Assembly: GCA_963579735.1 (NCBI GenBank)
Contig: CAUZIB010000011.1
Location: 700-64,699 of the forward strand
Reading direction: 5' to 3'
DNA length: 64,000 nucleotides
DNA from: Vicinamibacteria bacterium
Lineage (GTDB): Bacteria; Acidobacteriota; Vicinamibacteria; Vicinamibacterales; UBA8438
A program made the position numbers and the translations under genes. The stretch's first letter is position 1, and the number at the start of each line of letters is the position of its first letter. A model generated the notes under the pieces. The model was not told where the DNA came from. It did not search any database and saw only the letters and a program-made list of their open reading frames with translations. This document shows positions 14,118 to 53,116 of the stretch, one piece after another.

Positions 14118-15092
14118 ATGATGCGTCGCGCGCGAACGACCGTGGTAATGGTGATGACGTCACTCACGCTGGTGCTGGTCTCCGCGCCGGCGTCAGCGCA
14201 GACTCGGACAGCGTGGGGTGACCCCGATCTGCAAGGCATCTGGTCGTATGCCAGCATCACGCCGTTGCAGCGCCCGGCCGAGCTGGCCGGTCGAGAGTTT
14301 TTGACCCCCGAGGAGGTGGCGCTCCAGAATGAGGACGCGGCGACACGTGCTTCGTCTGAACGCCGGGACGAGCTCTCGGCCGAACGGGACCTCGGTCTGG
14401 CGTACAACCAGGTGTGGTGGGACCGCGGTCTTTCGACGGGTCGTACCTCGTTGATTGTGGACCCCGAAGACGGGAGGCTCCCACCGCTGACACCCGAGGG
14501 CGAGCGATACCGTGCGGAACGACAGTCACATCGGGAGGCACACCCGTATGACTCGTGGGAGGACCGACCCCTACAAGAACGGTGCATGACATACCAGCGC
14601 GCACCCCCGGTCCCGTCCGGCTACAACAACACATACCACATCCTCCAGGCCCCGGGTTATGTGGTCATTCTCAACGAGATGATTCACGACGTGCGTATCG
14701 TGCCTCTAGACGGACGTCCGCACGCGAATCCACGTATTCGACAGTGGAACGGCGATGTGCGTGGCCATTGGGAAAACGACACCCTGGTGATCGAGTCCAC
14801 CAACTACAGCGACAAGACGACGTGGCGTGGCTTCCCGGGTGCGGGTCGCACGTTGCGAGCGGTCGAGCGACTCACGCGGACCGACAATGACACCATCGAC
14901 TATCGCTATACCATCGACGACCCGACGACGTATACGCGACCCTGGACGGTCGAGTTGCCTCTCGTCCATCGTCCGGACTACGTGATCTACGAGTATGCAT
15001 GTCACGAAGGGAACTACTCGATTGCGAATGTGCTGATCGGCGCGCGCGCCCAGGAAAGAGCAGCCGAAGAAAAGATCAACGGGTCGCGGTAG
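14118..15092 (+). CDS. secreted protein, uncharacterised CHEGN-motif family (paralogue P1)
   Basis: RBS AGAGG before ATG 14118 and signal peptide MMRRARTTVVMVMTSLTLVLVSAPASAQ. Motifs WGDPDLQGIW, TSLIVDPEDGRLPPLT, EMIHDVRIVPLDGRPH, GDVRGHWENDTLVIEST and YEYACHEGNY. Homologous to 18638-19777, 23138-24169 and 52190-53116, and more distantly to 19805-20782. Confidence 0.75.
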   Translation: MMRRARTTVVMVMTSLTLVLVSAPASAQTRTAWGDPDLQGIWSYASITPLQRPAELAGREFLTPEEVALQNEDAATRASSERRDELSAERDLGLAYNQVWWDRGLSTGRTSLIVDPEDGRLPPLTPEGERYRAERQSHREAHPYDSWEDRPLQERCMTYQRAPPVPSGYNNTYHILQAPGYVVILNEMIHDVRIVPLDGRPHANPRIRQWNGDVRGHWENDTLVIESTNYSDKTTWRGFPGAGRTLRAVERLTRTDNDTIDYRYTIDDPTTYTRPWTVELPLVHRPDYVIYEYACHEGNYSIANVLIGARAQERAAEEKINGSR

Positions 15093-15230
15093 ACAGCGAC
15101 GGTGTGTCCGTTCAGGCAAGAATGCGACACGCCGTCCGTCGTGACTCGGACAGGATCACGTGCGGCCGGAGTGGCAACGACCGCGGACCGTCTCTAACCA
15201 GACCTTCGCTGGATTGAGATGGTGAGAAGG

Positions 15231-16670
15231 CTAGAAGTCTGGTTCTTGCCAGCGCTCGCGGCGTAGCAGCTCGCCGCTGCCGGCGGTCCCAAGGACCTCG
15301 CCGTCGCGATAGACGATGTCGCCGCGTCGCAACGTCAGGGTCGGCCACCCGGTGACGACGGTGCCGGCGTGCACGGAGTAGCCGCTGCCAGAGAACATGT
15401 CTTCGTTGCGGATCGTGCGTGTGTCGTCCGGGTCCCACACGACGAGATCCGCGTCTGACCCGACGGCGATGGCGCCTTTCCGCGGATACACTCCAAAGAG
15501 CTTCGCCGGATTCGACGATGTGACTTCGACGAATCGCTCGAGGCTGATCCGTCCGGTGCGCACGCCTTCCGAAAAGATCATCGGCAGCATGACCTGGAGG
15601 TTGCTCATTCCCGCGCGATGCCGGGCCACCGTCTGCGATGGGTCGAGTTTTTGTTCGCGTGTATAGGCGACGTGGTCCGAGCCGACGACGTGGATCGTCC
15701 CGCGGGCAAGTCCATCCCAGAGGGCGTCTTGGTCGTTCGCCGTGCGCAGCGGTGGCTGTCCGATATAGAGCCCGGGGGTAGGGCCGTCGAATCGCTCACG
15801 CGTGAGATGAAGATAGATCGGACGAGTCTCGACGTAGACCGGTAGGCCGCGCGTCTGTGCGTCCTCCGCAACCCGGAGCGCGCGTTCTGACGATAGGTGC
15901 ACGATATAGATCGGCGCGCCCGTCGCTTCCGCCATGGCCACCGCCCGCTGGGTCGCGGCCACTTCCGCCGAGACAGACCGCGCGTCGGCGAAGTTTGACA
16001 GTGAGCCTCGTCCCTCGGCCACCATCTGTTCCGCGGTGGTCTGGATAATGGACGCATCCTCACAGTGCATCATCAACAGCACACCGGTCGCGCGCGCTGC
16101 CTGCATCGTGTGGATAAAACCCGTGACGTTCTGCTCGAACGTCGGTCGCACCATGAATACCTTGATCGTCGTCTGACCGGCGGCGGCCAGTCGATCGAGT
16201 GTCTCGCGGGTGGCTGTCGCTGGGTCGCTGATGATCGGGTGAAAGATGACGTCGGCGATGGTCTCGTCTCGAATCGCGGGCGTCGCTTGCGCGACTGTTT
16301 CGGCCGGTGTCTCGCCTGTGCCTACGGCGCCGAAGTTGGAGATGGTCGTGATCCCGCCCGCGAGTGCGGCGGCTGACCCGCTCGTATAGTCGTCGACTCG
16401 CCCGCTGAGATGCACGTGAGGGTCAATGCCGCCCGGCAGCACAAGTCGACCCCGCGCGTCGATCACTTGCGTGCGCTCGTCGCGAGGGGCAAGCCCCGCC
16501 CCGAGCTCAGCGATGGTCGCGCCGACGATACGAATGTCGGTCTGGCGTCGACCGTCCGGCGTGACAACATCGCCGCCCCGGATGAGGGTTTCAGGGCCAG
16601 TTTGGGCCAGACTGACGACCGAGGTCGACCCGAACACGGTCAGAACTGCCAGAGCGCGCAACCAATACAT
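15231..16670 (-). CDS. cyclic amidohydrolase (dihydropyrimidinase / D-hydantoinase-like) with signal peptide
   Basis: The start is set at ATG 16670 (MYWLRALAVLTVFGSTSVVSLAQ). Motifs GGIDPHVHL, TIKVFM (carbamylated-Lys context), MMHCED, IYIVHLSS and VVGSDHVAY. The ORF-track start at 17027 is an over-extension. Confidence 0.85.
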   Translation of the reverse strand: MYWLRALAVLTVFGSTSVVSLAQTGPETLIRGGDVVTPDGRRQTDIRIVGATIAELGAGLAPRDERTQVIDARGRLVLPGGIDPHVHLSGRVDDYTSGSAAALAGGITTISNFGAVGTGETPAETVAQATPAIRDETIADVIFHPIISDPATATRETLDRLAAAGQTTIKVFMVRPTFEQNVTGFIHTMQAARATGVLLMMHCEDASIIQTTAEQMVAEGRGSLSNFADARSVSAEVAATQRAVAMAEATGAPIYIVHLSSERALRVAEDAQTRGLPVYVETRPIYLHLTRERFDGPTPGLYIGQPPLRTANDQDALWDGLARGTIHVVGSDHVAYTREQKLDPSQTVARHRAGMSNLQVMLPMIFSEGVRTGRISLERFVEVTSSNPAKLFGVYPRKGAIAVGSDADLVVWDPDDTRTIRNEDMFSGSGYSVHAGTVVTGWPTLTLRRGDIVYRDGEVLGTAGSGELLRRERWQEPDF

Positions 16671-16763
16671 CGCGTATCCTCCCGTTGGATTCTCGCGAAT
16701 CCTCTCACACGATTCTCGCGATTGCGAGCGATGTTTGAGTTCGCGCCGTAGAAGGTTTGGAGC

Positions 16764-18410
16764 GTGGTGACACAGGCGCAGTTCGATACCACAGATGAGA
16801 GGGACGGCTTCACCCTCTCGCTGCCAGCAATCTGTGGGTTGACAGCGAGCCTCGCCATCGGTCTCTCTTGTTTCGGTTTTTTCGACGCAGCTCGAGGCAA
16901 CGCAGCGCTCCAGTGGTCGTTCATCGGACCCGGCGTGCTGCTGCTGGCGTGGACCGGCGTCCTGGTCGGACGTGCGCAGCGCACGGGGCGGGTCTTGGGC
17001 GTGCGGGTCGCCTTGCGACCACAGCACTATGTTCAGGCGCTCGCGCAGGGTGTCTTCCTACTGTATTGGGGCTGGCACTGGCGCCCAGTCTACGATTCCG
17101 CGTTTCTCATTGCCTCCCAGCTGGTTTTCGCCTACGCGTTCGACATGTTGTTGTGCTGGTCGCGCCGGGACACCTACACCCTCGGATTCGGACCGGTCCC
17201 GGTCATCTTCAGTATCAATCTCTTCCTGTGGTTTGCCGACGATTGGTTCTATCTGCAATTTCTCCTAGTGGCGGTGGGCTTCGCCGTCAAAGAGCTGATC
17301 CGATGGGAGAAGGCCGGTCGGCAGGTTCACATATTCAATCCGTCATCGTTTCCCCTGGCGATTGTCTCGCTGGCCTTGATTCTCACCGGCACAAGCGACG
17401 TCACTTGGGGCCAGGACATCGCGACGACACAATTTTTCCCACCTCATGTGTATCTGGCGCTGTTTCTCGTGGGCTTGCCGGGGCAATACCTCTTTGGCGT
17501 GACATTGATGACGATGTCCGCCGTGGCCGTGACCTATCTGTTTGGGCTTCTCTACTTTGCCGCCACGGGTGTCTATTTTTTTTACGATTCGTATATACCC
17601 GTCGCCGTGTTTCTTGGCATGCACTTGTTGTTTACAGACCCGTCGACAGCGCCGCGGACCGAGATGGGGCGAATCCTATTTGGCGCACTGTATGGCTTGA
17701 GCACGGTCGCGCTCTACGCGATTCTGACGCGCGCTGGCGTTCCGCCGTTCTACGACAAGTTGCTTCAAGTGCCCGTCCTCAACCTTTCCATTCAGTGGCT
17801 GGACCGCTTCGCGTCCGGGCGGTGGCTGCGCGTGGTCGATCCCGCGCCCGGTCGCTCCCTTACGCCCCGTCAGCGGAATCTCGCCTACATGACACTCTGG
17901 GCGGTGCTGTTCGCTGTCATGACCACGACCAATACGGTTGGTGACCACCACCCGGGGCAATGGGTGCCTTTTTGGCAGGGCGCATGCGCCGACGAACGGC
18001 CCTCTGCCTGCTCCTATCTGGCGGACATGCATTTGCGGTCTTGCCGAACCGGTTCAGGCTGGGCGTGCAACGAAGCCGGCACGCTTGAGGCGGTGGTGTC
18101 CCCGACGGGTGAGGTTCGGCGTTGGCTCGAACTGACCGACGCGGCGGATGTGCTCGAGCGAGGTTGTGCGCTGGGTTTCGAAGCGGCCTGCCGCAACCTT
18201 GGCCTGTTGCGTGTCGGCCGAGGTCCGGCCGAGCATCCGCCGCCGACGTTGGACGACTATCCGATACTCCTCCGGGGCACAAAAGGACCAGTGGTGGACC
18301 GCTCGGCCGAGGCGCTCTTCGCGCGTGCGTGTCGCCAGGGATGGGCTGACACCTGTGGGCGGTCGGAGAACGGCGCCCTTGGATCCGATGACTCGCGTGA
18401 CTTTGACTAG
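16764..18410 (+). CDS. polytopic membrane protein with a C-terminal Cys-rich (4 x C-x7-C) repeat tail
   Basis: About 400 aa of TM helices (FNPSSFPLAIVSLALIL, FFYDSYIPVAVFLGMHLLFTDP). The soluble tail carries CADERPSAC, CRTGSGWAC, CALGFEAAC and CRQGWADTC. Confidence 0.6.
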   Translation: MVTQAQFDTTDERDGFTLSLPAICGLTASLAIGLSCFGFFDAARGNAALQWSFIGPGVLLLAWTGVLVGRAQRTGRVLGVRVALRPQHYVQALAQGVFLLYWGWHWRPVYDSAFLIASQLVFAYAFDMLLCWSRRDTYTLGFGPVPVIFSINLFLWFADDWFYLQFLLVAVGFAVKELIRWEKAGRQVHIFNPSSFPLAIVSLALILTGTSDVTWGQDIATTQFFPPHVYLALFLVGLPGQYLFGVTLMTMSAVAVTYLFGLLYFAATGVYFFYDSYIPVAVFLGMHLLFTDPSTAPRTEMGRILFGALYGLSTVALYAILTRAGVPPFYDKLLQVPVLNLSIQWLDRFASGRWLRVVDPAPGRSLTPRQRNLAYMTLWAVLFAVMTTTNTVGDHHPGQWVPFWQGACADERPSACSYLADMHLRSCRTGSGWACNEAGTLEAVVSPTGEVRRWLELTDAADVLERGCALGFEAACRNLGLLRVGRGPAEHPPPTLDDYPILLRGTKGPVVDRSAEALFARACRQGWADTCGRSENGALGSDDSRDFD

Positions 18411-18637
18411 TGCACCGCCGTCGGGTGAGCGTCCCGCTGCAAGTTCGGGCAACATTTCTTCGCGACATTCCGCGAGATCGAGCGCGCTGCAGTGGGCTTT
18501 GACAGGGTATGGTAGCCCGGGTATAGTCGAGCCTTTCCGAGAGTTACAGGCATGACGCGATGTCGGTTGGCGGTTCACAGTTGCGTTGAGGTCAGCGCGG
18601 GGTCATCGCCAGGGGCACGAACGCGGGAGGACCGAAG

Positions 18638-19777
18638 ATGAGTCGACGACTGCTCGAGTCGTTCGGTACGGCAACGGTGTTCGCAACCGTCATGACGCTT
18701 CTGCAACTCACGGCGGTGCCGGTGGAAGGACAGGCTCCACCGACGACGGCCTGGGGCCATCCAAACCTGGAGGGTATTTGGCTCGATGTGTATGACACGC
18801 CATTCGAGCGGGCGGTCGAATTGGGTGACCGCGAGCTCGCGACGGCCGAAGAGCGGGCCGCCCGCGACGAGGCTCGGATGATGAGCCCGGGGCGCAACCG
18901 GCGTGGGGAAGATGGTCGGCAAGACGTGGCGGGGGCATACAACGCCGTCTATACGTCGGCGAGACCCGCCGGCCCCCGCACATCGCTCGTCGTCGATCCG
19001 CCAAACGGGAGGATTCCCGCCCTGACGGTCGAGATGCAGCGTCAGAACGAGATCCAGCAACAATGGCGGCTCATGCTGTTGCGTAACACCGAGACGTGTG
19101 AGATTGGCGCGCCCGGCTGTTCTGGTGGTCAGTACGGAGAGCCATCGCCCGATCGATTCGATGTCGCGCCTTTCTACAACACGGGGCGGATGAATCGTCA
19201 TGACGGCCCCGAGGATCAAAGCTCCGGCGATCGTTGCATGTCGGGGCGCACGCCTGACCTGAGAGGATTTCGTCGGATCGTCCAGGGAGCGGATTCTGTG
19301 GCCATCGGTTATGACACCGGACAGGGGCAGGGATTCCAGCGTGTCGTCAACCTGAGCGGCGGCCATCCGCCGAGTCAGATCCGTCTTCGGCATGGGGACT
19401 CACGCGGTCACTGGGAGGGCGAGACCCTGGTGATCGAGACGACCAATTTCTCATCAAAGTTTCTGTATCGTGGTGCAGGTGCGAACCGTCGACTCGTCGA
19501 ACGCTATAGCCGGGTTGACGATGACACGCTGACGTATGAGATGACGATTGAAGATTCCACCGTGTGGACGGCACCCTGGACGATCCGGCAGGAGCTCAAG
19601 CGCCAGAGCGACGAGCAGAATCGGATCTACTATGAGCCTCGGTGTCACGAAGGAAACTACGGGCTCCCGGCGTTGCTCATCGGTGCGAGGATGGATGAGC
19701 AGGCTTTTGCGGAGGGGAGCGGGCCGAATCCGTTCTCCATGGACACCGCCACCTGTGTCAATGGCTTACAAGACTAA
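18638..19777 (+). CDS. secreted protein, CHEGN-motif family (paralogue P2, with a Cys-containing insertion)
   Basis: GGGAGG RBS and a signal peptide. Motifs WGHPNLEGIW, TSLVVDPPNGRIPALT, HGDSRGHWEGETLVIETTNF and YEPRCHEGNY. It has an extra roughly 60-aa insert (ETCEIGAPGCSGGQYG...). Confidence 0.75.
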   Translation: MSRRLLESFGTATVFATVMTLLQLTAVPVEGQAPPTTAWGHPNLEGIWLDVYDTPFERAVELGDRELATAEERAARDEARMMSPGRNRRGEDGRQDVAGAYNAVYTSARPAGPRTSLVVDPPNGRIPALTVEMQRQNEIQQQWRLMLLRNTETCEIGAPGCSGGQYGEPSPDRFDVAPFYNTGRMNRHDGPEDQSSGDRCMSGRTPDLRGFRRIVQGADSVAIGYDTGQGQGFQRVVNLSGGHPPSQIRLRHGDSRGHWEGETLVIETTNFSSKFLYRGAGANRRLVERYSRVDDDTLTYEMTIEDSTVWTAPWTIRQELKRQSDEQNRIYYEPRCHEGNYGLPALLIGARMDEQAFAEGSGPNPFSMDTATCVNGLQD

Positions 19778-19804
19778 GCAAACGAGAGAGAGCAAGGAGC
19801 GACA

Positions 19805-20782
19805 ATGAAAATCCGGTTCAGAGGCTCGACCGTTGTCACGGCCCTTGCCGCCGCCACCGTGGGTGCGTTCATCTCCGTCGCGGTAACGAGTACCGCCAGC
19901 CAAAGCCAGGGTCAGGCGCCGCGCCCGGCCGAGACCCCGGACGGACGGCCAAACTTCAACGGCGTGTGGCAAGCCAACAACGAAGCGCATTGGGACTTGG
20001 AAGCCCACGAGGCACGCCCCGGCATGGTGACGCAGCCGGGGGTGTATGAGTACGAGTATGCCGAGGTGCCGGCGGCCCCCGTGCTGGCGCTAGGCGCGGC
20101 GGCAGGCGTACCCGGGTCGTTGGGTGTCGTGCAGGGTGATGGTCGGATTCCCTACACCGCGGAGGCGCTGAGCATCAAGCAGGAGAACGCCGCGAACTGG
20201 ATCGACCGGGACCCCGAGCTCAAGTGCTACTTGCCGGGTATTCCACGGGCGATGTACATGCCCTACCCGTTTCAGATCGTCCAGAGCGACGACAAGATCC
20301 ACATGACGTTCGGCTTTTCAAACGCGGCACGGGTGATCCATCTCGACACGGTCGACCTTCCGCCGGACTATACCTACATGGGGCACTCGCTGGGACGATG
20401 GGAAGGAGATACTCTCGTGGTCGATGTGACCGAGTTCAACGGGAGGACCTGGTTCGACCGCGCCGGGAATTTTCATAGTGAAGCCCTTCAGCTTACCGAG
20501 CGCTTCTCGCAGATGACGCCAGATGTGATCTGGTATGAAGTCACGATGACGGACCCGCAGACCTTTACCGAGCCGTGGACGATCGGCATGCCAATTTATC
20601 GGCGGATGGACCCCAACGCGACGGTCCTGGACTATCCTTGCATCGAATTCGCCGAAGAGTTCATGTATGGACATCTGCGGAGAGAGCAGTTGGTCGAGCG
20701 CTGGGAAGGCGAGACCATGATTATCGACATCACACGAAAGATTCCGCCTGGCGACGAGCTCCACCAATGGTATCGTCGGTAG
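19805..20782 (+). CDS. secreted protein, divergent member of the CHEGN-motif superfamily (P3; CHEGN motif itself lost)
   Basis: AAGGAG RBS and a signal peptide. MGHSLGRWEGDTLVVDVTEFNGRTWFD...TERFSQMTPDVIWYEVTMTDPQTFTEPWT aligns with the core of P1, P2, P4 and P5. It lies 27 nt downstream of P2. Confidence 0.7.
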   Translation: MKIRFRGSTVVTALAAATVGAFISVAVTSTASQSQGQAPRPAETPDGRPNFNGVWQANNEAHWDLEAHEARPGMVTQPGVYEYEYAEVPAAPVLALGAAAGVPGSLGVVQGDGRIPYTAEALSIKQENAANWIDRDPELKCYLPGIPRAMYMPYPFQIVQSDDKIHMTFGFSNAARVIHLDTVDLPPDYTYMGHSLGRWEGDTLVVDVTEFNGRTWFDRAGNFHSEALQLTERFSQMTPDVIWYEVTMTDPQTFTEPWTIGMPIYRRMDPNATVLDYPCIEFAEEFMYGHLRREQLVERWEGETMIIDITRKIPPGDELHQWYRR

Positions 20783-20865
20783 CCGGCCGGTACGACCGAC
20801 CGTGCAGAAGTTTGGTAGCAACAGGCATCGACCCGAGACGCAGTAACAGCTGAGAGGTAATACCC

Positions 20866-21327
20866 ATGAGAGCGAGAACAGTGATTCTTTGCGTGAGCGC
20901 GGTTGTCGGGTTTTGTGGGTGGTTTGCGGGAACCGCCGAGCCCGTCGCGGCCCATCACGCCTTTGCAGCCGAATTCGATGGCGACCGACCGGTCGAGTTC
21001 AGCGGCTCGGTCACAAAGGTCGAGTGGATCAACCCGCACGTATGGATCCACGTTGACGTAGAGCGGGACGACGGCGCCATTGAAGAGTGGGCATTTGAAG
21101 CCGGCACGCCAAACGTGTTGTTCCGACGAGGCTTTACCAGACGCTCGCTACTACCGGGAACCGAGGTGCTCGTCGACGGGTATCAGGCGAAAGATGGTAC
21201 GAACCGGGCGAACGGCCGGGACATTACATTCGGCGACGGCACAAAGCTCTTTCTCGGGTCGTCCGGGACCGGGGCCCCCTGGGAACTCGCGCGACCTGGT
21301 GTAGACACGGCCGACCCGGCTCGCTGA
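20866..21327 (+). CDS. small secreted protein, DUF6152-like
   Basis: Signal peptide, then mature AHHAFAAEFD...SGSVTKVEWINPHVWIHVDV...EEWAFEAGTPNVLFRRGF...LLPGTEVLVDGYQAKDG. This pattern matches my recollection of the DUF6152 family (HHS...WxNPH...). Confidence 0.65.
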   Translation: MRARTVILCVSAVVGFCGWFAGTAEPVAAHHAFAAEFDGDRPVEFSGSVTKVEWINPHVWIHVDVERDDGAIEEWAFEAGTPNVLFRRGFTRRSLLPGTEVLVDGYQAKDGTNRANGRDITFGDGTKLFLGSSGTGAPWELARPGVDTADPAR

Positions 21328-21364
21328 TTGCCGCCCGGTTCGGGCCCACACCTCTTCTTTTGGT

Positions 21365-21404
21365 CTGGGTGATGTTCGACGCCTCCTGTGTTGACATCAC
21401 CCAG
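21365..21404. terminator. hairpin between convergent genes (11-bp perfect stem, 18-nt loop)
   Basis: CTGGGTGATGT (21365-21375) pairs with ACATCACCCAG (21394-21404). It lies between the DUF6152-like gene (+) and the MarR remnant (-). There is no clear U-tract. Confidence 0.35.
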
Positions 21405-21460
21405 CGCTTTGCACTCGAAGCAGATTGCTTCAACGTTGGCTCTGGCTCGAGGCGCCTCTC

Positions 21461-21736
21461 TCATGCGGATGACTCTTCTTGTTTCTCCGCACCGAGTACT
21501 TTTGAGAGTATTCGGCTGAGGGCGCCGACGTCGTCCTGATCCAGGTGAGCCAAGAAGTGACGAGCGACCTGGCGTAAATGACCCGGCGTCGTCCGCGCCA
21601 GCGTCTGTTGTCCCTCCTCTGTTAGCATCGCCTACTGGCCGCGACGGTCGAACCTTGCACGGTTGTCGAAGAATCAGTCCGGCCCGGCCGGCGCATGGTC
21701 AACTGTATCTCTGCGACGAGTATGGGTGCTGACCGT
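21461..21736 (-). pseudogene. remnant of a MarR-family regulator (C-terminal half only, with in-frame stops)
   Basis: Manual translation of the minus strand gives ...DTVDHAPAGPD*FFDNRARFDRRGQ*AMLTEEGQQTLARTTPGHLRQVARHFLAHLDQDDVGALSRILSKVLGAEKQEESSA*. This fits the MarR wing and C-terminal helix pattern (DRR...LTeeG...). The stops lie at complement 21674-21676 (TGA) and 21632-21634 (TAG). The N-terminal wHTH half is absent. Confidence 0.45.
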
Positions 21737-23137: not shown

Positions 23138-24169
23138 CTACTTTGATCCAGTCTTCATTACCGCTGCCGCCGCCTCTTGCATCCGAGCGCCGGCAAGGAT
23201 GTTGGGGATGGCGTAGTTTCCTTCGTGGCAGGCGTATTCGTAGATCACATAGTCAGGCTCGGCCGTGAGCGGAATCGACATCGTCCACGGCGCAGTGTAG
23301 ACATTCGGATCATCGACTGTGACGGTCCACATGATCGTGGTCTCCGACACGCGCTCGTAGCGCTCGACCACATGGAGCCTCGTGCTGGTTGGGATGCCCT
23401 TCAAGCGCCGACCAGCGCCGCTCGTCGCGATCCAGCCGCGGTTGTGGAAGTTCCGTGTCTCCACCACGAGGACCTCTCCTTCCCAATGCGCGCGCGCGTC
23501 ACCCATCCAGAGATCGATGCGGTCATCGATGTGCGGATGGTCCGACAACGGAATAACGCGTAGGTCGTGGATCATCTCGTGCTGCAGGACGATGTGGTCG
23601 CGGGTTTGCACGATGCGGTGCGTGTTGTTGTATCCCGCCGGAAGCATCGAGCCCGGCACACCCCGCGACAGACACCGGTCCAGCGTGCTCAAGTGCCGAT
23701 AGTGGTCACCCTCGTGGGCGAGATTGTATGCCTTGGCCTCGGTCGCCCATGTCTTGATAGGTGCCCGGCCGTCCGGCGGGTCGACGATGAGCGACGTCTG
23801 ACCGGTCGACAAAACCGTGTCGCCCGAGTCGAGCCAGTAACTCCCGTAGGCACCAAGCTGGCCGCCGGCTTCGGTGCGTTGGGCGGGCGCGGCGTCCTGC
23901 GCTGCCAGGGCTTGCACCCGTTGCGCGTGAGCCGCCGCCATCTCTTCATCCGTCAGAAACGCTCGTCCCTCCGCGGAATCGGGACGTTCCGTCGGGGTGA
24001 TGGTCTTGTTCCCCCAGAGGCCCTGAAGGTCCGGATGTCCGTGAGCCGTGCGAGGCGTGGTCCAGTTGGGGTCCGCGACTCGTTCCACCTGAGCGGTGGC
24101 CGACGGAGCAGCCAGCGCGCAGGTGAGGGCCGCGGCGGCGAGAGTGAACGGTATGGGGCGTGCTGACAT
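23138..24169 (-). CDS. secreted protein, CHEGN-motif family (paralogue P4)
   Basis: AAGAGGAG RBS and signal peptide MSARPIPFTLAAAALTCALAAPSATAQ. Motifs HGHPDLQGLW, TSLIVDPPDGRAP, HEMIHDLRVIPL, GDARAHWEGEVLVVETRNF and YEYACHEGNY. Confidence 0.8.
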   Translation of the reverse strand: MSARPIPFTLAAAALTCALAAPSATAQVERVADPNWTTPRTAHGHPDLQGLWGNKTITPTERPDSAEGRAFLTDEEMAAAHAQRVQALAAQDAAPAQRTEAGGQLGAYGSYWLDSGDTVLSTGQTSLIVDPPDGRAPIKTWATEAKAYNLAHEGDHYRHLSTLDRCLSRGVPGSMLPAGYNNTHRIVQTRDHIVLQHEMIHDLRVIPLSDHPHIDDRIDLWMGDARAHWEGEVLVVETRNFHNRGWIATSGAGRRLKGIPTSTRLHVVERYERVSETTIMWTVTVDDPNVYTAPWTMSIPLTAEPDYVIYEYACHEGNYAIPNILAGARMQEAAAAVMKTGSK

Positions 24170-34401: not shown

Positions 34402-34468
34402 TGGCATCTCGACGGCGGTGCTCTAGACCATGCGAGCGGGTGGTGACCGGGTGGTAAGAGGAAGCAAC

Positions 34469-39804: not shown

Positions 39805-40673
39805 TCAGCTTTCACCTCGGCGCTCCGCCGTCCTCGGTATTTTTGGCACGAACGCACAGAATCGGCGCGAGTTGTCGACCAGAATGCGTCTGAGCGTCTC
39901 TTCATCCACACCGGCCCGACGCAGCTTTGGAACAAACACCGTCACGGTCCTCGAAATACCAGGACCGCCGTTTTGCTGCCAATTTGGCCAGGCATTCACG
40001 CCGAAGTCGGCGGAAATCAATAGCCGATTCTCGTAGCCCGCTTCGAGGAGCTTGAGGATCATCGGCACGTTGCGGTCGTCGCTGCCCCCGCCCTGTCGGT
40101 CAAAACCCACAAACGCCCCGCGTCGCGTGATGGCCTTGTGGACCTCCACCTCTGGTGCCACCAGGCTACCGAGATGACCGATTGCGACACGGTCGGGCTG
40201 GACTCCCATCGATTCCAGGATGTCGAGTTGTTCCTCCGCACACTTTCCGTTCTCGGTGGGCGTGAAGATCGGGAGGTTCGTTGCAACGTGCGCTCTGCCG
40301 ACAGCGCGGAATACTTTCCGCTCGTTTGGCGTGATTTCGTCCGAGGTGCCCATTTCTCCAATGGACAGCCCGTGATGGGGTCACGAACCAGTGGCCGGCG
40401 AGGTCGGCCCGCCCGTGACGGCCGGGCAGCCATCCTCGCGTTCCAATCAGCGCCGTGGGTCAAGTGCTCATGAAACAGCGTCGTCCCGCCACCGAGCCTC
40501 GCGGGGGACAGGTCCTCGAGGACTGTCCGAATGACCGCCCCGTCGGGAAACTCTGGCCCTTGCGCGCCAAAGACGGTGTGTGGCGATCGCGCCACGGCCG
40601 CGCCTGCGCCGAGAACCCTCAGTGCTTCTCGGCGGGTGACGGCTGGCAATCGACACATCACTTCGTCAGACAT
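39805..40673 (-). pseudogene. phosphotriesterase-family (amidohydrolase) protein with Tat leader, disrupted by a frameshift and apparent internal deletion
   Basis: ORF 40059-40673 begins with a Tat leader (VTRREALRVLGAGAAV) and TLFHEHL (HxH metal site), then becomes nonsense. ORF 39805-40353 in another frame gives LSIGEMGTSDEITPNERKVFRAVGRAHVATNLPIF...VAIGHL...LLISADFG. Only about 38 codons separate HEHL from IGEMG, against roughly 100 in intact family members as I recall them. A metal-binding His position reads TPT. Confidence 0.6.
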
Positions 40674-40930: not shown

Positions 40931-43405
40931 ATGCGAAGACCGTTACGCGCCACACCGTGCGGATACATCGTCGCGGTCGTCGCATTAGGGTATGCGCAAC
41001 TTGCGTTTGCGCAGGGCTCTCCCACGGCGCTTCCCGCAGCGCCCTCTGATCCCCAAGTTCTGCTCGACGAGTATTGCGTCGCCTGCCACAACGAGCGGAC
41101 CCTGACCGCCGGCCTCTCGCTGGAGATGCGCGATGTTCACGACATCGGCGACGGTGCCGAGATCTGGGAGAAAGTGGTAGGCAAGCTTCGGAGTGGCGCG
41201 ATGCCGCCGCTCGGTCGCCCGCGTCCTGACGAGGCTACCCTGGACGGCTTTGTGACGTGGCTCGAAACAGAGCTCGACGGTGAGGCTGCCCGTCATCCGA
41301 ACCCTGGCCGAACCGCGGATCACCGCCTGAACCGGGTGGAGTATGGCAATGCCATTCGTGACCTCCTGGCGCTGGAGATTGATCCGGCGGCGTTACTCCC
41401 GGCCGATGAATCGGATCATGGCTTTGACAACATCGCCGAAGTGCTGTCAATGTCGCCCACGCTGCTTGAGCGATATCTGTTCGCGGCGAGGAAAATCAGC
41501 CGACTGGCGATCGGGGATCCGACGGCCGGCCCCGCCGTCGAGACCTTTAACCTTTCGCGTGGGTTGCGACAAGACCAGCGCATGAGTGAGGACCTCCCGT
41601 ATGGCACGCGTGGAGGCGCGTCGATACGGCACTATTTTCCTCTGGACGGCGAGTATGTCGTAAAGATCCGACTGGGTCGCAACTACACCAACTCGCAGAT
41701 TCGGGCGATCAAGACCCGGGAAGAGATCGACGTGCTGCTCGACGGCGCGCCCGTGACCAGATTCACAATCGGCGGGCAATGTGGTGACGCCGACCCGCAA
41801 GACCCTGCGTGCATCGGGTCCGGCATCTATCGGACGTCCGCCTACCAGCTCACTGCCGATGAAGCCCTCGAGGTCCGGTTTCCCGCCGAGGCCGGGATGC
41901 ATGCGCTCGGCGTGGCGTTTGTAAGGAAGAGCGTATTGACGGAAGGGCCGGCTCCCGCCTTGCTCCCACCACGACACACGAGCTCGACATATCAGGCGCC
42001 ACGCATGGATATCGACTACGTGCGTCTGGAAGGACCGTTCAACCCCACCGGTCCTGGGGACACCGAGAGCCGTCGCCGAATTTTTGTGTGTCACCCGGCC
42101 GAGATGACCGGGGGCTCCGCGGCGGATATAGACGACGAGACCTGTGCGCGCGAGATTCTCACGACGCTGGCTGGTCGTGCCTATCGTCGCCCGTCGACAG
42201 ATGCAGATGTCGACACGCTGCTCCAGTTCTACGATGCGGGTCGTGACGCTGTCGGCGGAACCTTTGAGCGGGGCATTCAAGAGGCGCTCACGCGGCTACT
42301 CGTCTCACCCCATTTCTTGTTTCGTACTGAGCGTGATCCGCAGGAGGCGACCGCCGCCGGCGTGTATCGAATCAGTGACTATGAGTTGGCGTCGCGTCTA
42401 TCTTTCTTCCTGTGGAGCAGTATTCCGGATGAGGCCTTGCTCGACGCCGCGAAACGCGGGACTTTGGGTGATCCGGAGGGCCTGGCCGCACAGGTAAAGC
42501 GGATGCTGGCCGACCCGCGGGCCTCGGCGCTGACACAGAACTTTGGTGGACAGTGGTTATTTACACGGAATCTCAAGGCCGTCGACCCCGACGCCAGCGC
42601 GTTTCCCGACTTTGACGACAACCTGCGCGCCGCGTTCCAGCGCGAGACGGAGCTGTTTCTCGAGAACCAAATGCGCGACGACCGTCCGCTCGGAGAGCTG
42701 TTGACCGCGCGGCACACATTTGTCAACGAGCGTCTTGCCCGCTTCTATGGGATCCCGAATGTGTATGGAGCGCACTTTCGGCGAGCGGAACATCAAGACC
42801 CGAACCGAGCGGGGCTGTTGGGACAGGGCAGCGTGCTCACCGTGACGTCGTATGCAACTCGGACATCGCCAGTGATTCGAGGCAAGTATCTTCTCGACAA
42901 TATCCTCGGGGCGCCGCCGCCGCCTCCTCCTGCGAATGTACCGGCACTCGAGGACTCGGACCAGGCCGGTCACCCGCTTGCGTCGATGCGCGATCGGATG
43001 GCATCGCATCGGCGGAACGCCGCGTGCGCGAGCTGTCATGCCAGGATGGACCCGCTGGGGTTTGCCTTGGAAAACTTTGACGGGATTGGACGATGGCGCA
43101 CGATGGACGGTGCGTCCGTGATTGATGCGTCGGGCGTGCTTCCGGATGGGACCACGTTTGGCGGACCCGCCGAGTTCAGGGAGGCCCTTCTGGCTCATCG
43201 TGAGGAATTTGTCAGGACCTTTACGGAAAAGCTTCTAACGTATGCGCTCGGCCGCGCAGTGCAGCACTATGACAAACCGACCATCCGGTCGATCGTGCGG
43301 GACGCCGCCTCTAGCGACCACCGATGGTCGTCGCTGGTGCTCGGTATCGTAAAGAGTCGGCCGTTTCAGATGCGAACGGTTCAGGACGCTGAGACGGGAT
43401 TGTAG
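40931..43405 (+). CDS. DUF1592/DUF1588/DUF1587/DUF1585/DUF1595-type ('PSD/PSCyt3') protein with two CxxCH motifs (copy 1)
   Basis: AGGAGGG RBS and a signal peptide. N-terminal YCVACHN...GAMPP, C-terminal CASCHARMDPLGFALENFDGIGRWR, and internal blocks (LNRVEYGNAIRDLL, FGGQWLFTRNL, LTARHTFVNERLARFYGIP, TSPVIRGKYL) that are typical of this family. Confidence 0.85.
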   Translation: MRRPLRATPCGYIVAVVALGYAQLAFAQGSPTALPAAPSDPQVLLDEYCVACHNERTLTAGLSLEMRDVHDIGDGAEIWEKVVGKLRSGAMPPLGRPRPDEATLDGFVTWLETELDGEAARHPNPGRTADHRLNRVEYGNAIRDLLALEIDPAALLPADESDHGFDNIAEVLSMSPTLLERYLFAARKISRLAIGDPTAGPAVETFNLSRGLRQDQRMSEDLPYGTRGGASIRHYFPLDGEYVVKIRLGRNYTNSQIRAIKTREEIDVLLDGAPVTRFTIGGQCGDADPQDPACIGSGIYRTSAYQLTADEALEVRFPAEAGMHALGVAFVRKSVLTEGPAPALLPPRHTSSTYQAPRMDIDYVRLEGPFNPTGPGDTESRRRIFVCHPAEMTGGSAADIDDETCAREILTTLAGRAYRRPSTDADVDTLLQFYDAGRDAVGGTFERGIQEALTRLLVSPHFLFRTERDPQEATAAGVYRISDYELASRLSFFLWSSIPDEALLDAAKRGTLGDPEGLAAQVKRMLADPRASALTQNFGGQWLFTRNLKAVDPDASAFPDFDDNLRAAFQRETELFLENQMRDDRPLGELLTARHTFVNERLARFYGIPNVYGAHFRRAEHQDPNRAGLLGQGSVLTVTSYATRTSPVIRGKYLLDNILGAPPPPPPANVPALEDSDQAGHPLASMRDRMASHRRNAACASCHARMDPLGFALENFDGIGRWRTMDGASVIDASGVLPDGTTFGGPAEFREALLAHREEFVRTFTEKLLTYALGRAVQHYDKPTIRSIVRDAASSDHRWSSLVLGIVKSRPFQMRTVQDAETGL

Positions 43406-43434
43406 AACGCGAGACTCGAGATAGGAGTGTCTGA

Positions 43435-44793
43435 ATGGTGATTACAAAGAAGTGCCTGTCGCGTCGCACCCTGCTGCGCGGTTTGGGTGCGAGTATCGCG
43501 CTCCCGTTGCTCGACGGAATGGTGCCAGCACTCGCTGCGATGCGTAACACGGCCGCGCGTCCCGTCAAACGGCTCGGTGCGGTGTATGTGCCAAACGGCA
43601 TGAGTATGGCTCGCTGGTTGCCGACGGCCGAAGGCCGCTTGGAGCTGACGCCGATCCTCTCGCCGCTCGCGCCCGTGCAAGACCAGGTGACGGTCTTGAG
43701 CGGGATGGCGAACCAGGAGGCAAGGCAATGGCTCGATGAAGGGGATGGCGACCATTCGCGGTGTCAAGCCGCCTATCTCACCGGCGCCCACGCCAAAAAA
43801 GCCTCGGGGGCCAACACAACCCTCGAGGTTGGCATATCGATGGACCAGCTCGCGGCCCGGGAGCTGCGAGAGGACACGCAGCTCGCCTCGCTCGAGCTGT
43901 CTTTGGAAGCCAATGAGCTGGTGGGGCAATGCGAAGACGGGTATGGGTGCGCCTATAGCGCCACTCTTGCGTGGCGGGACGCGAACACGCCGTTGCCGAT
44001 GGAGACAAACCCGCGTGCCGCCTTCGAGCATCTCTTTGGAGCCGTGGGTAGCACGGGTCGCGAAGCTCGGCTCCGCGCCCTGCAGTCGGACAAGAGCATT
44101 CTCGATTCGGTCAGTGAGGAGCTGACAAAGTTGCAGCGCGTGCTCGGTCGAGGCGACCGCTCAAAGCTGGGCGGTTATCTCGATTCGGTGCGGGATATCG
44201 AGCGGCGTATCCAGATTGCCGAAACACAAGCTGACCGCGAGCTTCCCGAAGTCGTGCAGCCGGCGGGTATTCCGGCCACCTTCGAGGACTACGCCAGCTT
44301 GATGTTTGACCTGATGTTTGTGGCGTATCAGGCTGATCTGACCCGAGTTGCAACGTTCTTGATTGGCCGGGAGAAGAGCGTCCGAACCTACCCAGAGATC
44401 GGTGTCGCGGAACCGCACCACCCTGTTTCTCATCACCGACAGAGTCCAGAACAGCTCGAGAAGCTGGCAAAGATCAATACCTTCCATATGCAGATCTTTG
44501 GGCGTTTCCTGGAACGGCTCCGGTCGACCAATGATGGCGACGGCTCGTTGCTGGACCATTCGATGATCATCTATGGTGCGGGGATGGGTAATAGCAACGC
44601 GCACGACCCACTGGATCTTCCGATCGTCCTGGCGGGTGGAGGCGGGGGCACGATCACTGGGGGACGGCACGTCCGGCTGCCAGAGGGGACGCCGCTGTCC
44701 AACATGCATCTGACGGTGCTCGAGAACATGGGGATTCCGGCCGAACGGCTTGGCGATAGCACGGGCGGGTTGCCAGTGCTGTCCGAGGTCTAG
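43435..44793 (+). CDS. DUF1552 family protein with Tat-type leader (copy 1)
   Basis: MVITKKCLSRRTLLRGLGASIALPLLDGMVPA leader. It is collinear with 57259-58614 (VAYQADLTRVATF, HHPVSHH, GDGSLLDHSMIIYG). Confidence 0.85.
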   Translation: MVITKKCLSRRTLLRGLGASIALPLLDGMVPALAAMRNTAARPVKRLGAVYVPNGMSMARWLPTAEGRLELTPILSPLAPVQDQVTVLSGMANQEARQWLDEGDGDHSRCQAAYLTGAHAKKASGANTTLEVGISMDQLAARELREDTQLASLELSLEANELVGQCEDGYGCAYSATLAWRDANTPLPMETNPRAAFEHLFGAVGSTGREARLRALQSDKSILDSVSEELTKLQRVLGRGDRSKLGGYLDSVRDIERRIQIAETQADRELPEVVQPAGIPATFEDYASLMFDLMFVAYQADLTRVATFLIGREKSVRTYPEIGVAEPHHPVSHHRQSPEQLEKLAKINTFHMQIFGRFLERLRSTNDGDGSLLDHSMIIYGAGMGNSNAHDPLDLPIVLAGGGGGTITGGRHVRLPEGTPLSNMHLTVLENMGIPAERLGDSTGGLPVLSEV

Positions 44794-44807
44794 TTGAGAG
44801 GCGTGAG

Positions 44808-46280
44808 ATGCATACCATCCAAAGAATGACCGGGGTCGCCGTCTTCATCGTTGTCGCCGCGGTTCAGAGTCTTGCGGTGGCGGCGCCCGACGTCCGGCTG
44901 GCCACGGCCGCCAAGAATCATGACGCCGAGTCTGTCCGGACGTTGTTGACCGAGGGCGTCGCCGTGAATGCCACGCCGCCCGATGGCGTCACCGCACTGC
45001 ACTGGGCGGTTCAATGGAACCACGAGGCGATGGCTGACCTCCTGATCGGCGCGGGTGCCGCCGTGAATGCGGCGGATCACTATCAAGTGACACCGCTCGC
45101 GCTCGCCTGTACCAACGGGAGCGCTGGGATGGTTCACCGTTTACTGAAGGCTGGCGCGGATGTGAACGCCACCCAGGCAACCGGGGAAACCGCGTTGATG
45201 ACATGCGCGCGGTCGGGCGTGGTTGGCGCCGTGAGACCGCTTCTCGCGCGCGCGGTCGATGTGAACGCAGCAGAGGTCGCGCACGGACAGACCGCGCTCA
45301 TGTGGGCCACGTGGGAAGGTCATACGGAGGTCGTGCGCGCCTTGCTCGAGCATGGTGCCGATGTCGGGGCGCGGACGACGACCGGATACACGGCATTGTT
45401 GTTGGCGGCGCGTGAGGGTTATCAGGAGACAACTCAGACACTCCTCAATGCCGGCGCGGACATAAATGACACTGCGGAAGATGGGACGACAGCGTTGGTC
45501 GTTGCGACCATCCGACGGCACACGTCATACGCCGAGTACTTGCTCGACCACGGGGCAGACCCTAATCTGGGGCCCGGGTTTACGCCGCTGCACTGGGCGG
45601 CCGGCGAGTGGGACACCGAGTTGAACGACCTGTCCAATGGCGTCGCCGAGGGCAACGACTGGAGCGCATTCGGAGGACTACGCGCCCCGGATAGACTAGA
45701 CATGGTGCGGTTGCTCCTCGGTCACGGCGCGGATCCGAACCAGCGGACCGACCGAACTCCGGGGTTTGGTATCGCGGTGAAGGGCCATCTGGGCAACATC
45801 ACCGGCGGTACGCCGTTTCTGATTGCGGCGCGGGCGAACGATGTCGCCGTGATGCGCGAGTTGCTCACGCACGGCGCTGATCCGCTGATCCCGACGCGTA
45901 ACGGGACGACACCGCTCATGATGGCGGCCGGGATTGGCCACTCGCCAGGTATCACCCGTTCGAGCGAGGACGAGGCGCTCGACGCGGTCTATCTGTGCGT
46001 CGAGGTCGGCGCCGATGTCACCGCAGTCAACGACTCTGGCGACACGGCTCTGCATGGTGCCGCGTGGCGGGAACGAGCAGATTCGATTGTGCAGTTTCTC
46101 GTGGACCGTGGCGCTGAGATGGACGTAAAGAACAACCGAGACTGGACCCCGCTCGTCATCGCCGAAGGGATCCATACCGGGGGAAACTTCATCAAGTCGG
46201 ATACGACGTCCGCGTTGCTTCTCGAGCTCGGCGCGACCCCCAGCCCGCTTGATATCTCGAGAGAGCCACAGGCGAGATAG
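44808..46280 (+). CDS. secreted ankyrin-repeat protein (copy 1)
   Basis: Signal peptide (MTGVAVFIVVAAVQSLAVAAP) followed by multiple ANK repeats (G.TALHWA...LL..GA.VN). It lies 14 nt after the DUF1552 gene. Confidence 0.9.
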   Translation: MHTIQRMTGVAVFIVVAAVQSLAVAAPDVRLATAAKNHDAESVRTLLTEGVAVNATPPDGVTALHWAVQWNHEAMADLLIGAGAAVNAADHYQVTPLALACTNGSAGMVHRLLKAGADVNATQATGETALMTCARSGVVGAVRPLLARAVDVNAAEVAHGQTALMWATWEGHTEVVRALLEHGADVGARTTTGYTALLLAAREGYQETTQTLLNAGADINDTAEDGTTALVVATIRRHTSYAEYLLDHGADPNLGPGFTPLHWAAGEWDTELNDLSNGVAEGNDWSAFGGLRAPDRLDMVRLLLGHGADPNQRTDRTPGFGIAVKGHLGNITGGTPFLIAARANDVAVMRELLTHGADPLIPTRNGTTPLMMAAGIGHSPGITRSSEDEALDAVYLCVEVGADVTAVNDSGDTALHGAAWRERADSIVQFLVDRGAEMDVKNNRDWTPLVIAEGIHTGGNFIKSDTTSALLLELGATPSPLDISREPQAR

Positions 46281-47879: not shown

Positions 47880-47935
47880 GATTCGATATTGTGCCCGATG
47901 TGCCCGGTCTCAAGATAGAAGGGTGGGTCGCGTGC

Positions 47936-49766: not shown

Positions 49767-49908
49767 GTCCAGGTCCCATATGAACGGGAACACAGGTCCG
49801 TGACGATGCCCTCACGCGCGCAACACTGTCCTCGGCACCACGTCCACGCTGGCTTCTTGGTCGCCGCCTGAACGTGCGTCGCGCGTGGTTCGCCCGTCTC
49901 GGATTCGT

Positions 49909-52002: not shown

Positions 52003-52189
52003 ATTTACTCCTGCGCTGCTGGGGTCCCCGCGACGAGTGTCGTGTCACCGTCCTGCCTTGACAGTGTCCGGGCGAGGCAACCCGTCTGGCCGCGTTGCTC
52101 CTCGCTCAATTTGCCCAACAAGCTCCCTCGTCTCGCCGGCCGGGTGCGGCACTCCGGAATCACTGTCAAGGCAAGACCGAGACACGACA

Positions 52190-53116
52190 CTACCGGGACG
52201 CCCCGGGGTCACGTTCCGCGGTCTCTGTCGCTTCGATGTTGCGATTGACTTCGAGGATGCCCGCCAGACCGTCGTTGCCTTCGTGACAGGCGTATTCATA
52301 GAGGCGGCCCTCATTCCGGTTGAAGGGGATCTGCGCCGTCCAAGACCGGCTCCAGGTTGTCGCATCCGAGGCGGTGAAACGGTAGTCGATCGTGTCGGCG
52401 TCGACGCGGACCAATCGTTCGACGAGGTGCAGGTTTCGAGCCGACCCCCGGAAATTTGTCCTCGAGGTGAAGTTCGTCGTCTCGATGACAAGCGTCTCTT
52501 CCTCCCAGTGTCCGCGCGAATCTCCGTTCCATTGCCGGATGTGCTCGGCGAGATGGAGACGTCCGTCCAACGGAACGATACGAGCGTGATGGATCATCTC
52601 GCTGAAGATGACAACGTAGCCCGGCGCCTGAAGAATCTGATAGTGGTTGTTATACAGACCGGGCAGACGTGGTACGGTGCGGGTGATACAGCGTTCGCTG
52701 GGGTTGCGCTCCTCCGGAGCATTCACACCCTGGCTACGACCCGCCTCCATTCGACGCTGGCCTGCAGGAGTGAGCGGTGGGACTCGGCCATCGACTGGAT
52801 CGATGATTAAAGACGTGCGTCGATTGCTGACCGTTTTGATCCCGCGATCCCAGTAGTAGCGGTCGTTGACCCGCTGTTCGGCTGTCGCCGCTTCATAGGC
52901 GACAGCTTCCTCGGCGGTAAGACTCGGCCGTTCGGCGAATTGTTGCGGCCGCTCCAGCGGGGTGATCGTGCGGTTGTCCCACACCCCCTGCAGGTCTGGA
53001 TCACCCCAGGGCGTGCGGGGTGGCTCTTGGACTGCTGATTGAGCCGACGTCGTCGACGAAATACCAAGCGCGAGAACGGCGCACAGTACACTCGCGTTCG
53101 CGGTGTTCAGAGTCAC
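52190..53116 (-). CDS. secreted protein, CHEGN-motif family (paralogue P5)
   Basis: The start is set at GTG 53116, preceded by a GAGGAGG RBS; the ORF-track start at 53167 is less likely. Motifs WGDPDLQGVW, TSLIIDPVDGRVPPLT, EMIHHARIVPLDGRLH, GDSRGHWEEETLVIETTNF and YEYACHEGN. Confidence 0.8.
   Translation of the reverse strand: MTLNTANASVLCAVLALGISSTTSAQSAVQEPPRTPWGDPDLQGVWDNRTITPLERPQQFAERPSLTAEEAVAYEAATAEQRVNDRYYWDRGIKTVSNRRTSLIIDPVDGRVPPLTPAGQRRMEAGRSQGVNAPEERNPSERCITRTVPRLPGLYNNHYQILQAPGYVVIFSEMIHHARIVPLDGRLHLAEHIRQWNGDSRGHWEEETLVIETTNFTSRTNFRGSARNLHLVERLVRVDADTIDYRFTASDATTWSRSWTAQIPFNRNEGRLYEYACHEGNDGLAGILEVNRNIEATETAERDPGASR

Follow-up and report, generated by a model that had tools for sequence, protein, structure and literature searches.

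Five genes in a 64-kb stretch of DNA from a Vicinamibacteria bacterium (64,000 nucleotides of contig CAUZIB010000011.1, referred to here as the window) belong to a bacterial family of exported proteins that is very large and unnamed and that appears from sequence comparison to lie outside any described sequence family. We call the five paralogues A to E. The core of these proteins is predicted to be a calycin-like up-and-down beta-barrel. Two of them, B and C, form with a DUF6152 gene a unit that is transcribed as one in the sea and that, judged by gene order, is conserved elsewhere: it comprises one gene of the CHEGN type (named from a motif towards the C terminus), one of a divergent C type, and DUF6152. 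As a tentative reading, to which we give somewhat less than even confidence, we propose that the proteins are exported, disulfide-stabilised, calycin-like ligand binders that act as a C-type/CHEGN-type pair with DUF6152 and are accessory to periplasmic oxidoreductases.

Members of the family in the window

Each of the five proteins was used as a tblastn query against the whole window. The genes are as follows.

Paralogue A: 14118..15092, + strand; 324 residues, CHEGN-type, with a signal peptide followed by the QTRTAWGDPDLQGIW motif.
Paralogue B: 18638..19777, + strand; 379 residues, CHEGN-type, having an insert that contains Cys; it opens the B-C-DUF6152 operon.
Paralogue C: 19805..20782, + strand; 325 residues, divergent C-type (C-I-E-F in place of CHEGN); second gene of the operon.
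Paralogue D: 23138..24169, - strand; 343 residues, CHEGN-type, lacking a family partner; a dienelactone hydrolase gene adjoins.
Paralogue E: 52190..53167, - strand; up to 325 residues, CHEGN-type (reading CHEGND).

The start of A was set by means of a 324-residue homologue of 92% identity (P0001). The longest open reading frame (ORF) of E begins with GTG at 53167 and contains an internal GTG at 53116; a signal-like N terminus follows from either start. The proteins are 26-47% identical to one another, with E-values from 1e-12 to 7e-83, a similarity far beyond chance. A shares 47% of its residues with E (E 4e-79), 44% with D (1e-73) and 36% with B (5e-50), and C is 26-32% identical to the other four (1e-12 to 3e-18). 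None of the five queries found a sixth copy in the window, which has a G+C content of 62.7%. The DNA belongs to a seawater acidobacterium related closely to metagenome-assembled genomes of Vicinamibacterales.

ORF calls, tblastn and alignment all bear out the preliminary description of this DNA, made from the letters alone, as regards the coordinates, strands and kinship of the five genes. The series of ordered motif blocks that it listed is visible in the five-protein alignment, although not in every member: GYNN and EMIH are missing from B, which has ~40 extra residues inserted, and C lacks the His of CHEGN. Its assignment of signal peptides to all five also holds on inspection, each N terminus having a positive n-region, then a hydrophobic segment, then a small-x-small site with Gln after it; across the family, Gln is 88% conserved at the first mature position. 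The five proteins are thus predicted to be exported by the Sec pathway to the periplasm.

The family was rightly called uncharacterised. There were no Pfam matches, even at E ≤ 1, for the five copies and 134 further diverse members (139 in total), no NCBIfam matches for the five copies, and no matches among PDB sequences for profiles built from 5 or from 139 members. Word-index searches with A and with C each gave at least 8,000 candidates, and the matches listed were named only "hypothetical protein". The metagenome-scale profile search that had been suggested was run exhaustively over 1.84 billion representatives of clusters at 50% identity. It yielded 26,001 such clusters at E ≤ 1e-3, 13,058 at 1e-10 and 2,604 at 1e-30. 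At least 584 family copies are present in species-representative genomes. The best 80 genomic loci, several of which come from the same genome, are mostly from Vicinamibacterales and Bryobacterales, with a few from Gammaproteobacteria (Porticoccaceae, OM182, Rariloculaceae and Multivorans); the family belongs mainly to the Acidobacteriota and also to some marine Gammaproteobacteria. A search of the literature for DUF6152 and for the family motifs found no paper mentioning either. Tens of thousands of sequence clusters, from a family abundant in soil Acidobacteriota and marine bacteria and transcribed in the ocean, hence stand without a Pfam or NCBIfam model, a solved structure or a literature.

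The five copies had been taken as a fivefold expansion in one neighbourhood, which is misleading. They are better regarded as old subfamilies than as a local expansion, because A and C, the two that were searched, have orthologues elsewhere of 92% and 98% identity, respectively; B and C, moreover, are the hetero-pair of a conserved operon with DUF6152.

A conserved unit with DUF6152

The third gene of the operon and a membrane protein gene upstream of it are listed here.

DUF6152 protein: 20866..21327, + strand; 153 residues, matching PF19649 with 103.7 bits against a cut-off of 27.
Membrane protein: 16764..18410, + strand; 548 residues, polytopic, with a Cys-rich C-terminal part and weak similarity to RnfD/NqrB.

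The DUF6152 match spans positions 5-94 of the 98 in the profile, and the protein has no sequence relatives in the PDB. Residues H30, H31, P57, H58 and E78 are invariant, and a near-invariant Asn before P57 completes an NPH motif. The His-His pair follows directly on the signal peptide and so would form the mature N terminus, which suggests that this pair, with the further His and Glu, is a candidate metal site.

The association was assessed in both directions. In the best 80 loci selected by the family, containing ~150 family genes, there were 25 same-strand adjacencies between family genes and 18 between a family gene and DUF6152. For the reverse test, 80 metagenome loci were chosen by DUF6152 alone, the collection being scanned with a 7-sequence alignment since a 16-sequence alignment was too diverse for this purpose. 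A family gene adjoins DUF6152 on the same strand in 63 of these 80 loci, and in 59 of the 71 with room to show it. The orders seen, writing C for C-type, N for CHEGN-type and D for DUF6152, are C-N-D, N-C-D, N-D and C-D. The first of these, C-N-D, is the recurrent one. In the window the genes stand as B, C, DUF6152 (18638-21327), a variant that is repeated together with its neighbours on two public contigs (L085 and L086) encoding an identical C protein.

Gene fusions point the same way. At locus L020 (404-1543, - strand), a single ORF has DUF6152 at residues 34-125 with a C-type domain behind it, and one protein (P0245) carries two family domains in tandem in one chain. These fusions support a physical association of the encoded proteins. 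By gene order, the conserved unit is one C-type gene, one CHEGN-type gene and DUF6152, and DUF6152 is the only near-obligate partner; most family genes have unclustered, non-conserved neighbours. The partnership appears to be undescribed, no paper mentioning DUF6152 having been found. It gives DUF6152 its first context, in a defined unit with two predicted barrel subunits for which invariant residues and a candidate disulfide can be named.

The 548-residue membrane protein may be a fourth, membrane component of the system. Its matches to RnfD/NqrB families are all below threshold. In four loci (L087, L088, L090 and L106) a homologue comes immediately after DUF6152 and is read in the same direction, and in two (L095 and L104) it stands beside DUF6152 on the opposite strand; all six have B-type modules or are on contigs too short to tell. 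In the window its gene has a low RNA depth of 0-2 and lies outside the abundant transcript described below.

Transcription of the unit in seawater

Transcribed unit B + C + DUF6152: 18540..21560, + strand; seen in contigs of four seawater metatranscriptomes.

These four metatranscriptomes hold 81-98% of the sampled words of the region 18600-21400. The RNA contigs start at 18539-18556, ~90 bases before the ATG of B, end at 21413-21560, and span both the B/C and the C/DUF6152 junctions. The flanks have a word depth of 0-6. That of the unit is mostly ~4-30, one bin being lower, and is the highest within a 13.5-kb stretch; contig depth is a crude measure, the contigs are strandless and some carry-over of DNA is possible. 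B, C and DUF6152 are therefore co-transcribed as one unit in the sea. Elsewhere the RNA cover is thin: 0-2.7 for A, ~0-4 for D and a patchy 0-4 for E. In two runs there are contigs that connect the 3' end of B with the interior of D (window positions 19698 and 23730), 7 extra letters standing between; the joint is due either to chimeric assembly of the two paralogues or to a variant arrangement present in another strain.

Predicted fold

An AlphaFold2 model of A, calculated from the alignment of 139 diverse members, has a mean predicted local distance difference test score (pLDDT) of 87.5 and a predicted template-modelling score (pTM) of 0.84. It replaced an earlier model from 31 sequences (pLDDT 70), which was too uncertain around both conserved cysteines. 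In the model a short strand at 40-43, containing the G-x-W of WGDPDLQGIW, is followed by helices at 64-79, 88-93 and 126-141 and by a short strand at 113-115 (in TSLIVDP). Eight consecutive strands then lie between 172 and 284, and after them come the CHEGN loop and a long C-terminal helix at 300-322.

When the model was compared with the PDB by Foldseek, all of the top matches were calycin barrels, with probabilities up to 1.0. They included tardigrade SAHS proteins, CRABP2, fatty-acid-binding proteins (FABPs), UnaG, nitrophorins, NanoLuc and avidins. The best match has an E-value of 4.4e-3, a target TM-score of 0.50 and a query TM-score of 0.24; none reaches E ≤ 1e-3. The sequence carries a corresponding mark. 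G-x-W in the first strand is a signature of the calycins and lipocalins, and in the family G40 is 99% and W42 91% conserved (W42 being mostly Tyr otherwise), in a strand 12 residues past the predicted cleavage site. Calycins also have a basic residue in the last strand that packs on this Trp; candidates for such a residue in the family are position 285, with Arg or Lys in 95 of the 139 sequences (68%), and R274, basic in 65%. From the model, then, the core is a calycin-like up-and-down beta-barrel, and at the level of fold the family is predicted to be a new, elaborated variant of it. The preliminary description could assign no fold and proposed AlphaFold and Foldseek as a check. The model now permits an assignment, and the check gave a confident model with calycin matches only, though with weak scores over ~120 of the 324 residues.

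Conserved residues

Seven residues are invariant in the 139 sequences: G119, P122, C156, G212, E250, C295 and E297. A further 25 positions are more than 90% conserved, namely G34, P36, G40, W42, R52, S111, R155, Q177, R193, G216, W218, G220, T222, L223, V224, R251, Y262, T265, D268, P275, W276, E292, N299, L306 and R310. Among 526 full-length members, C156 and C295 are both present in every one and E297 is kept in 516. A test for joint loss of the two cysteines was uninformative, there being no sequence among the 526 that lacks either. The mature forms of A, C, D and E have exactly two cysteines each.

The preliminary description had singled out an invariant Cys-His-Glu in the CHEGN block and suggested that it might form a metal or catalytic site with two other His-containing blocks. 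The His is the least constant of the three: H296 is present in 88% of the 139 sequences and in 377 of ~520 (72%) of the larger set, and is Ile, Met or Val in the C-type subfamily. Nor are the other blocks better placed, the His of EMIH being 74% conserved and that of the RPH block falling below the 80% conservation list, and at position 217 Arg is commoner than His. A structural disulfide between C156 and C295 would be likelier than a metal site because the two cysteines are invariant in an exported protein.

Conservation alternates along the strands. The hydrophobic faces hold polar or aromatic conserved residues, with Q177 beside I175, R193 beside I195 and L197, E250 beside L246, L248 and F252, Y262 beside L260, F264 and V266, and W276 beside A278, I280 and M282. 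In terms of the model, this alternation suggests a buried polar cluster inside the predicted barrel.

Genomic context

The window is an island of genes for exported enzymes. It encodes three proteins like alcohol dehydrogenases (ADHs) of the pyrroloquinoline quinone (PQQ) type (4717-6402, + strand; 10269-12290, - strand; 35505-37499, + strand) and two PQQ_2 propellers, together with a multihaem cytochrome, an amidohydrolase, an amidase, a formamidase, a dienelactone hydrolase, a BD-FAE esterase, an Abhydrolase_10 protein, a dimethylformamidase-like protein and two PSD/PSCyt-DUF1552-ankyrin sets. E is followed on its own strand by the Abhydrolase_10 gene and is divergent from one of these ankyrin-PSD-DUF1552 sets.

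A PQQ dehydrogenase lies within 10 kb of the family gene in 25-29 of the 80 loci. We rejected this as evidence of a link: such proximity is expected by chance because PQQ genes are so dense in these genomes, the window alone having three full-length genes and two PQQ_2 propellers. The same caution applies to the PSD/DUF1552/ankyrin sets, which are too frequent for their proximity to count. More telling is tight adjacency on the same strand, which is found in six loci (L024, L035, L036, L046, L071 and L079) from two phyla, represented by Acidobacteriota and Gammaproteobacteria. At L046 the order is C-type, CHEGN-type, DUF6152, PQQ dehydrogenase, cytochrome c, and at L079 it is PSD, DUF1552, PQQ dehydrogenase, family gene.

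Orthologues of A in three separate 90%-identity clusters (P0067, P0080 and P0117) have an N-terminal cytochrome c domain. At L081 (412-3079; compare L082-L084) such a cytochrome-fused gene overlaps the end of a gene for a SorA-like molybdoenzyme of the sulfite oxidase family, which is where SorAB-type systems have their cytochrome subunit. An amidohydrolase gene follows the fusion gene on the opposite strand, as one follows A in the window. The haem-binding motif CXXCH occurs only in the fused N-terminal domains of some relatives, as in the extension of P0269, which reads CVSCH. From the recurrent operons with PQQ dehydrogenases and cytochrome c, the family proteins may act as accessories of periplasmic oxidation.

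Two neighbours of A in the window, the LVIVD protein upstream and the amidohydrolase after it, were considered as conserved neighbours and rejected, being found in none of the 80 genome loci; the amidohydrolase recurs beside the cytochrome-fused A-type orthologues. A Tat-signal protein resembling SMP-30/gluconolactonase lies directly upstream of family genes four times, and NHL-repeat propellers and metallo-beta-lactamase-fold proteins (12 loci) are also recurrent neighbours (examples of recurrent neighbours are at L050, 15202-16287 and 4-837, and at L056, 714-1766).

The PSD/PSCyt multidomain cytochrome protein, DUF1552 (HXXSHH) and ankyrin-repeat sets are at 40931-46280 and 53214-58614, both on the + strand, and a set of this kind is followed by a family gene on the same strand in four loci (L011, L057, L065 and L079). 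A two-domain Lipocalin_5 protein (34430-35500, + strand) ends 4 bases before the PQQ dehydrogenase gene at 35505-37499, with which it probably forms an operon, a second pairing of a barrel with a quinoprotein. Vicinal Cys-Cys is present in both of the PQQ dehydrogenases tested (10269-12290 and 35505-37499), and the latter reads W-E-Y-D where the quinohaemoprotein ADH 1kb0 reads W-D-Y-T. All three PQQ genes are below threshold for the NCBIfam "acido-empty-quinoprotein group A", the highest being 4717-6402, whose score of 546 compares with a cut-off of 650. A PQQ dehydrogenase gene and a Pol IV gene flank the gene for a multihaem c-type cytochrome (6893-7891, + strand). The phosphotriesterase-family ORF at 39805-40353 (- strand) matches only positions 131-296 of PF02126, and the ORF that overlaps it upstream in another frame (40059-40673, - strand) has no family; the two may represent a truncated or frameshifted gene.

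Proposed role and alternatives

The arrangement we propose is as follows. Each protein would consist of an N-terminal arm of ~140 residues, starting with the G-x-W strand after the signal peptide, then the barrel of eight strands (172-284 in A) and the C-terminal helix. The disulfide from C156, before the barrel, to C295 in YACHEGN, after it, would tie the post-barrel loop to the barrel entrance, and the buried Q177, R193, E250 and Y262, with E297 and N299 of the loop, would make a site for a small organic ligand. The working unit would be a C-type subunit, a CHEGN-type subunit and DUF6152, represented in the window by B, C and the DUF6152 protein, with A, D and E as solitary members of other subfamilies. 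The N-terminal His-His of DUF6152, with its further His and Glu, would provide a metal site. Such a complex may serve PQQ dehydrogenases with cytochrome c and SorAB-like molybdoenzymes, binding or presenting a substrate, product or cofactor while itself carrying no electrons. The analysis establishes the homology, the size of the family, the predicted fold, the invariant residues, the gene linkage, the fusions and the transcription; we infer the disulfide, the pocket, the formation of a complex, metal binding by DUF6152 and the link to oxidation pathways. If the module is accessory or catalytic in periplasmic oxidation, thousands of genes per metagenome would gain an annotation, and the finding would bear on the extracytoplasmic processing of organic matter by oligotrophic bacteria.

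Several observations weigh against this proposal. The fold similarity is weak in absolute terms (E 4e-3 and a TM-score of ~0.5 over ~120 of 324 residues), and Foldseek found no full-length structural match in the PDB. Only ~6 of the 80 loci have a tight operonic PQQ dehydrogenase, which makes the PQQ link soft, and A, D and E lack an adjacent DUF6152, so that a model built on the complex may not fit every member. The literature search for DUF6152 and the motifs brought up no biochemical or genetic work on any member. Finally, two invariant Glu with a near-invariant Arg and Gln, kept across subfamilies of 25% identity, fit catalysis equally well.

This last point is the basis of the alternative that the proteins are enzymes, with E250 and E297 acting with R193, Q177 and Y262 in a barrel active site on a small periplasmic metabolite, for example in the isomerisation, hydrolysis or elimination of the products of neighbouring dehydrogenases and lactonases, the substrates differing by paralogue. 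We consider this rather unlikely. In its favour, both Glu remain near-invariant in ~540 sequences while the surrounding positions vary, as expected of catalytic residues; calycin-fold enzymes exist, NanoLuc and the OlmO spirocyclase being among the Foldseek matches; and the neighbours include PQQ dehydrogenases, SGL gluconolactonase-like proteins, NHL propellers, metallo-beta-lactamase-fold proteins, amidohydrolases and esterases. It would leave the tight coupling to DUF6152 unexplained, however, and the loss of the CHEGN His and Asn from the C-type partner suggests that one subunit would be non-catalytic; nor did the Pfam, NCBIfam and PDB sequence searches find similarity to known enzyme families. 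The metal-binding or catalytic Cys-His-Glu of the preliminary description, with the other His blocks as part of a site in each protein, seems to us very unlikely. C295 is invariant, E297 nearly so and H296 present in most CHEGN-type members, and a constant partner that resembles a metal-binding protein does place the module in a metal context. Against it are the absence of H296 from the whole C-type subfamily, the inconstancy of the EMIH His and of position 217, the equal invariance of C156, an even number of cysteines that fits a periplasmic disulfide, and searches that found no similarity to metalloprotein families. That the CHEGN-type subunit is instead a redox protein with a cofactor in its barrel, for example a haem that has His296 as ligand or is attached at Cys295 in the manner of single-cysteine XXXCH cytochromes, and passes electrons between PQQ or Mo enzymes and cytochromes, we regard as highly improbable. 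The motif context E-Y-A-C-H does have the XXXCH form, nitrophorin haem barrels are among the structural matches, and both the repeated fusions to c-type cytochromes and the operons with PQQ dehydrogenase and cytochrome c would suit it. Bacterial haem-attachment systems normally need CXXCH, however, and the five proteins contain no such motif, theirs reading Y-A-C-H or P-R-C-H; the C-type subunit loses the His yet keeps the Cys, the invariant C156 would go unexplained, and the nitrophorin TM-scores are poor (0.26-0.28).

The family and DUF6152 might also form a self-contained module, for example one that scavenges metal or nutrients or helps to maintain the envelope, with no specific coupling to oxidoreductases and simply located in gene-dense islands of exported proteins. 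Finding PQQ enzymes or PSD/DUF1552/ankyrin sets within 10 kb is no surprise in genomes so rich in them, and the neighbours of most family genes are, DUF6152 apart, not conserved. We nevertheless think such a module unlikely in view of the tight same-strand PQQ adjacency in two phyla, with gaps of ~15-350 bases between the segments matched by tblastn, and of the stable cytochrome c fusions in three separate clusters. Quite unlikely, and bolder, is the idea that the C-type and CHEGN-type proteins and DUF6152, sometimes with the RnfD/NqrB-like protein, make up an unrecognised multi-subunit periplasmic metalloprotein system, widespread among Acidobacteriota and marine Gammaproteobacteria, in which metal would be bound at the N-terminal His-His of DUF6152, and substrate or cofactor in the two barrels. 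If true, it would amount to a new periplasmic oxidative enzyme or to a machine for delivering metal or cofactor to quinoprotein dehydrogenases.

Comparison with known systems

In genomic position, the accessory role that we favour has a parallel in MxaJ/XoxJ with cytochrome cL, where a small exported protein likewise stands beside a PQQ dehydrogenase and a cytochrome, as family genes do at L046 and L079. MxaJ and XoxJ are solute-binding-protein folds and not barrels, there is no sequence relation between them and the family, and the association of the family with PQQ dehydrogenases is confined to a minority of loci. DUF6152, with ~110 mature residues, is smaller than the five paralogues and unrelated to them in sequence. 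Its N-terminal His-His, NPH and Glu recall metal sites built on an N-terminal His, such as the copper "histidine brace" of CopC or the lytic polysaccharide monooxygenases (LPMOs).

A barrel family closer at hand is Lipocalin_5 (PF13924), which occurs in the window and which, as a C-terminal domain, is also carried by one family member (P0309). Its start is comparable at the G-x-W, FVGAW aligning with LQGVW. Kinship of the family to the Lipocalin_5 protein of the window was rejected, since hhalign gave a probability of 0.3% and an E-value of 0.18 over 10 columns; that protein has no sequence relatives in the PDB.

The closest likeness is to the calycins as a whole, that is, the lipocalins, the FABP and retinoid-binding proteins, the avidins and the SAHS proteins. 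In these an antiparallel up-and-down barrel is likewise followed by a C-terminal helix, and a near-invariant G-x-W in the first strand is common to them and to the family. Among the lipocalins many are exported proteins in which a conserved disulfide fastens the C-terminal segment to the barrel, and the proposed C156-C295 bond may be likened to it. The family differs in that it matches no Pfam model of a lipocalin or FABP and in that ~130 residues of helices and loops come between the G-x-W strand and the main strands. It differs also in its organisation, for its members occur as hetero-pairs together with a third, unrelated protein.

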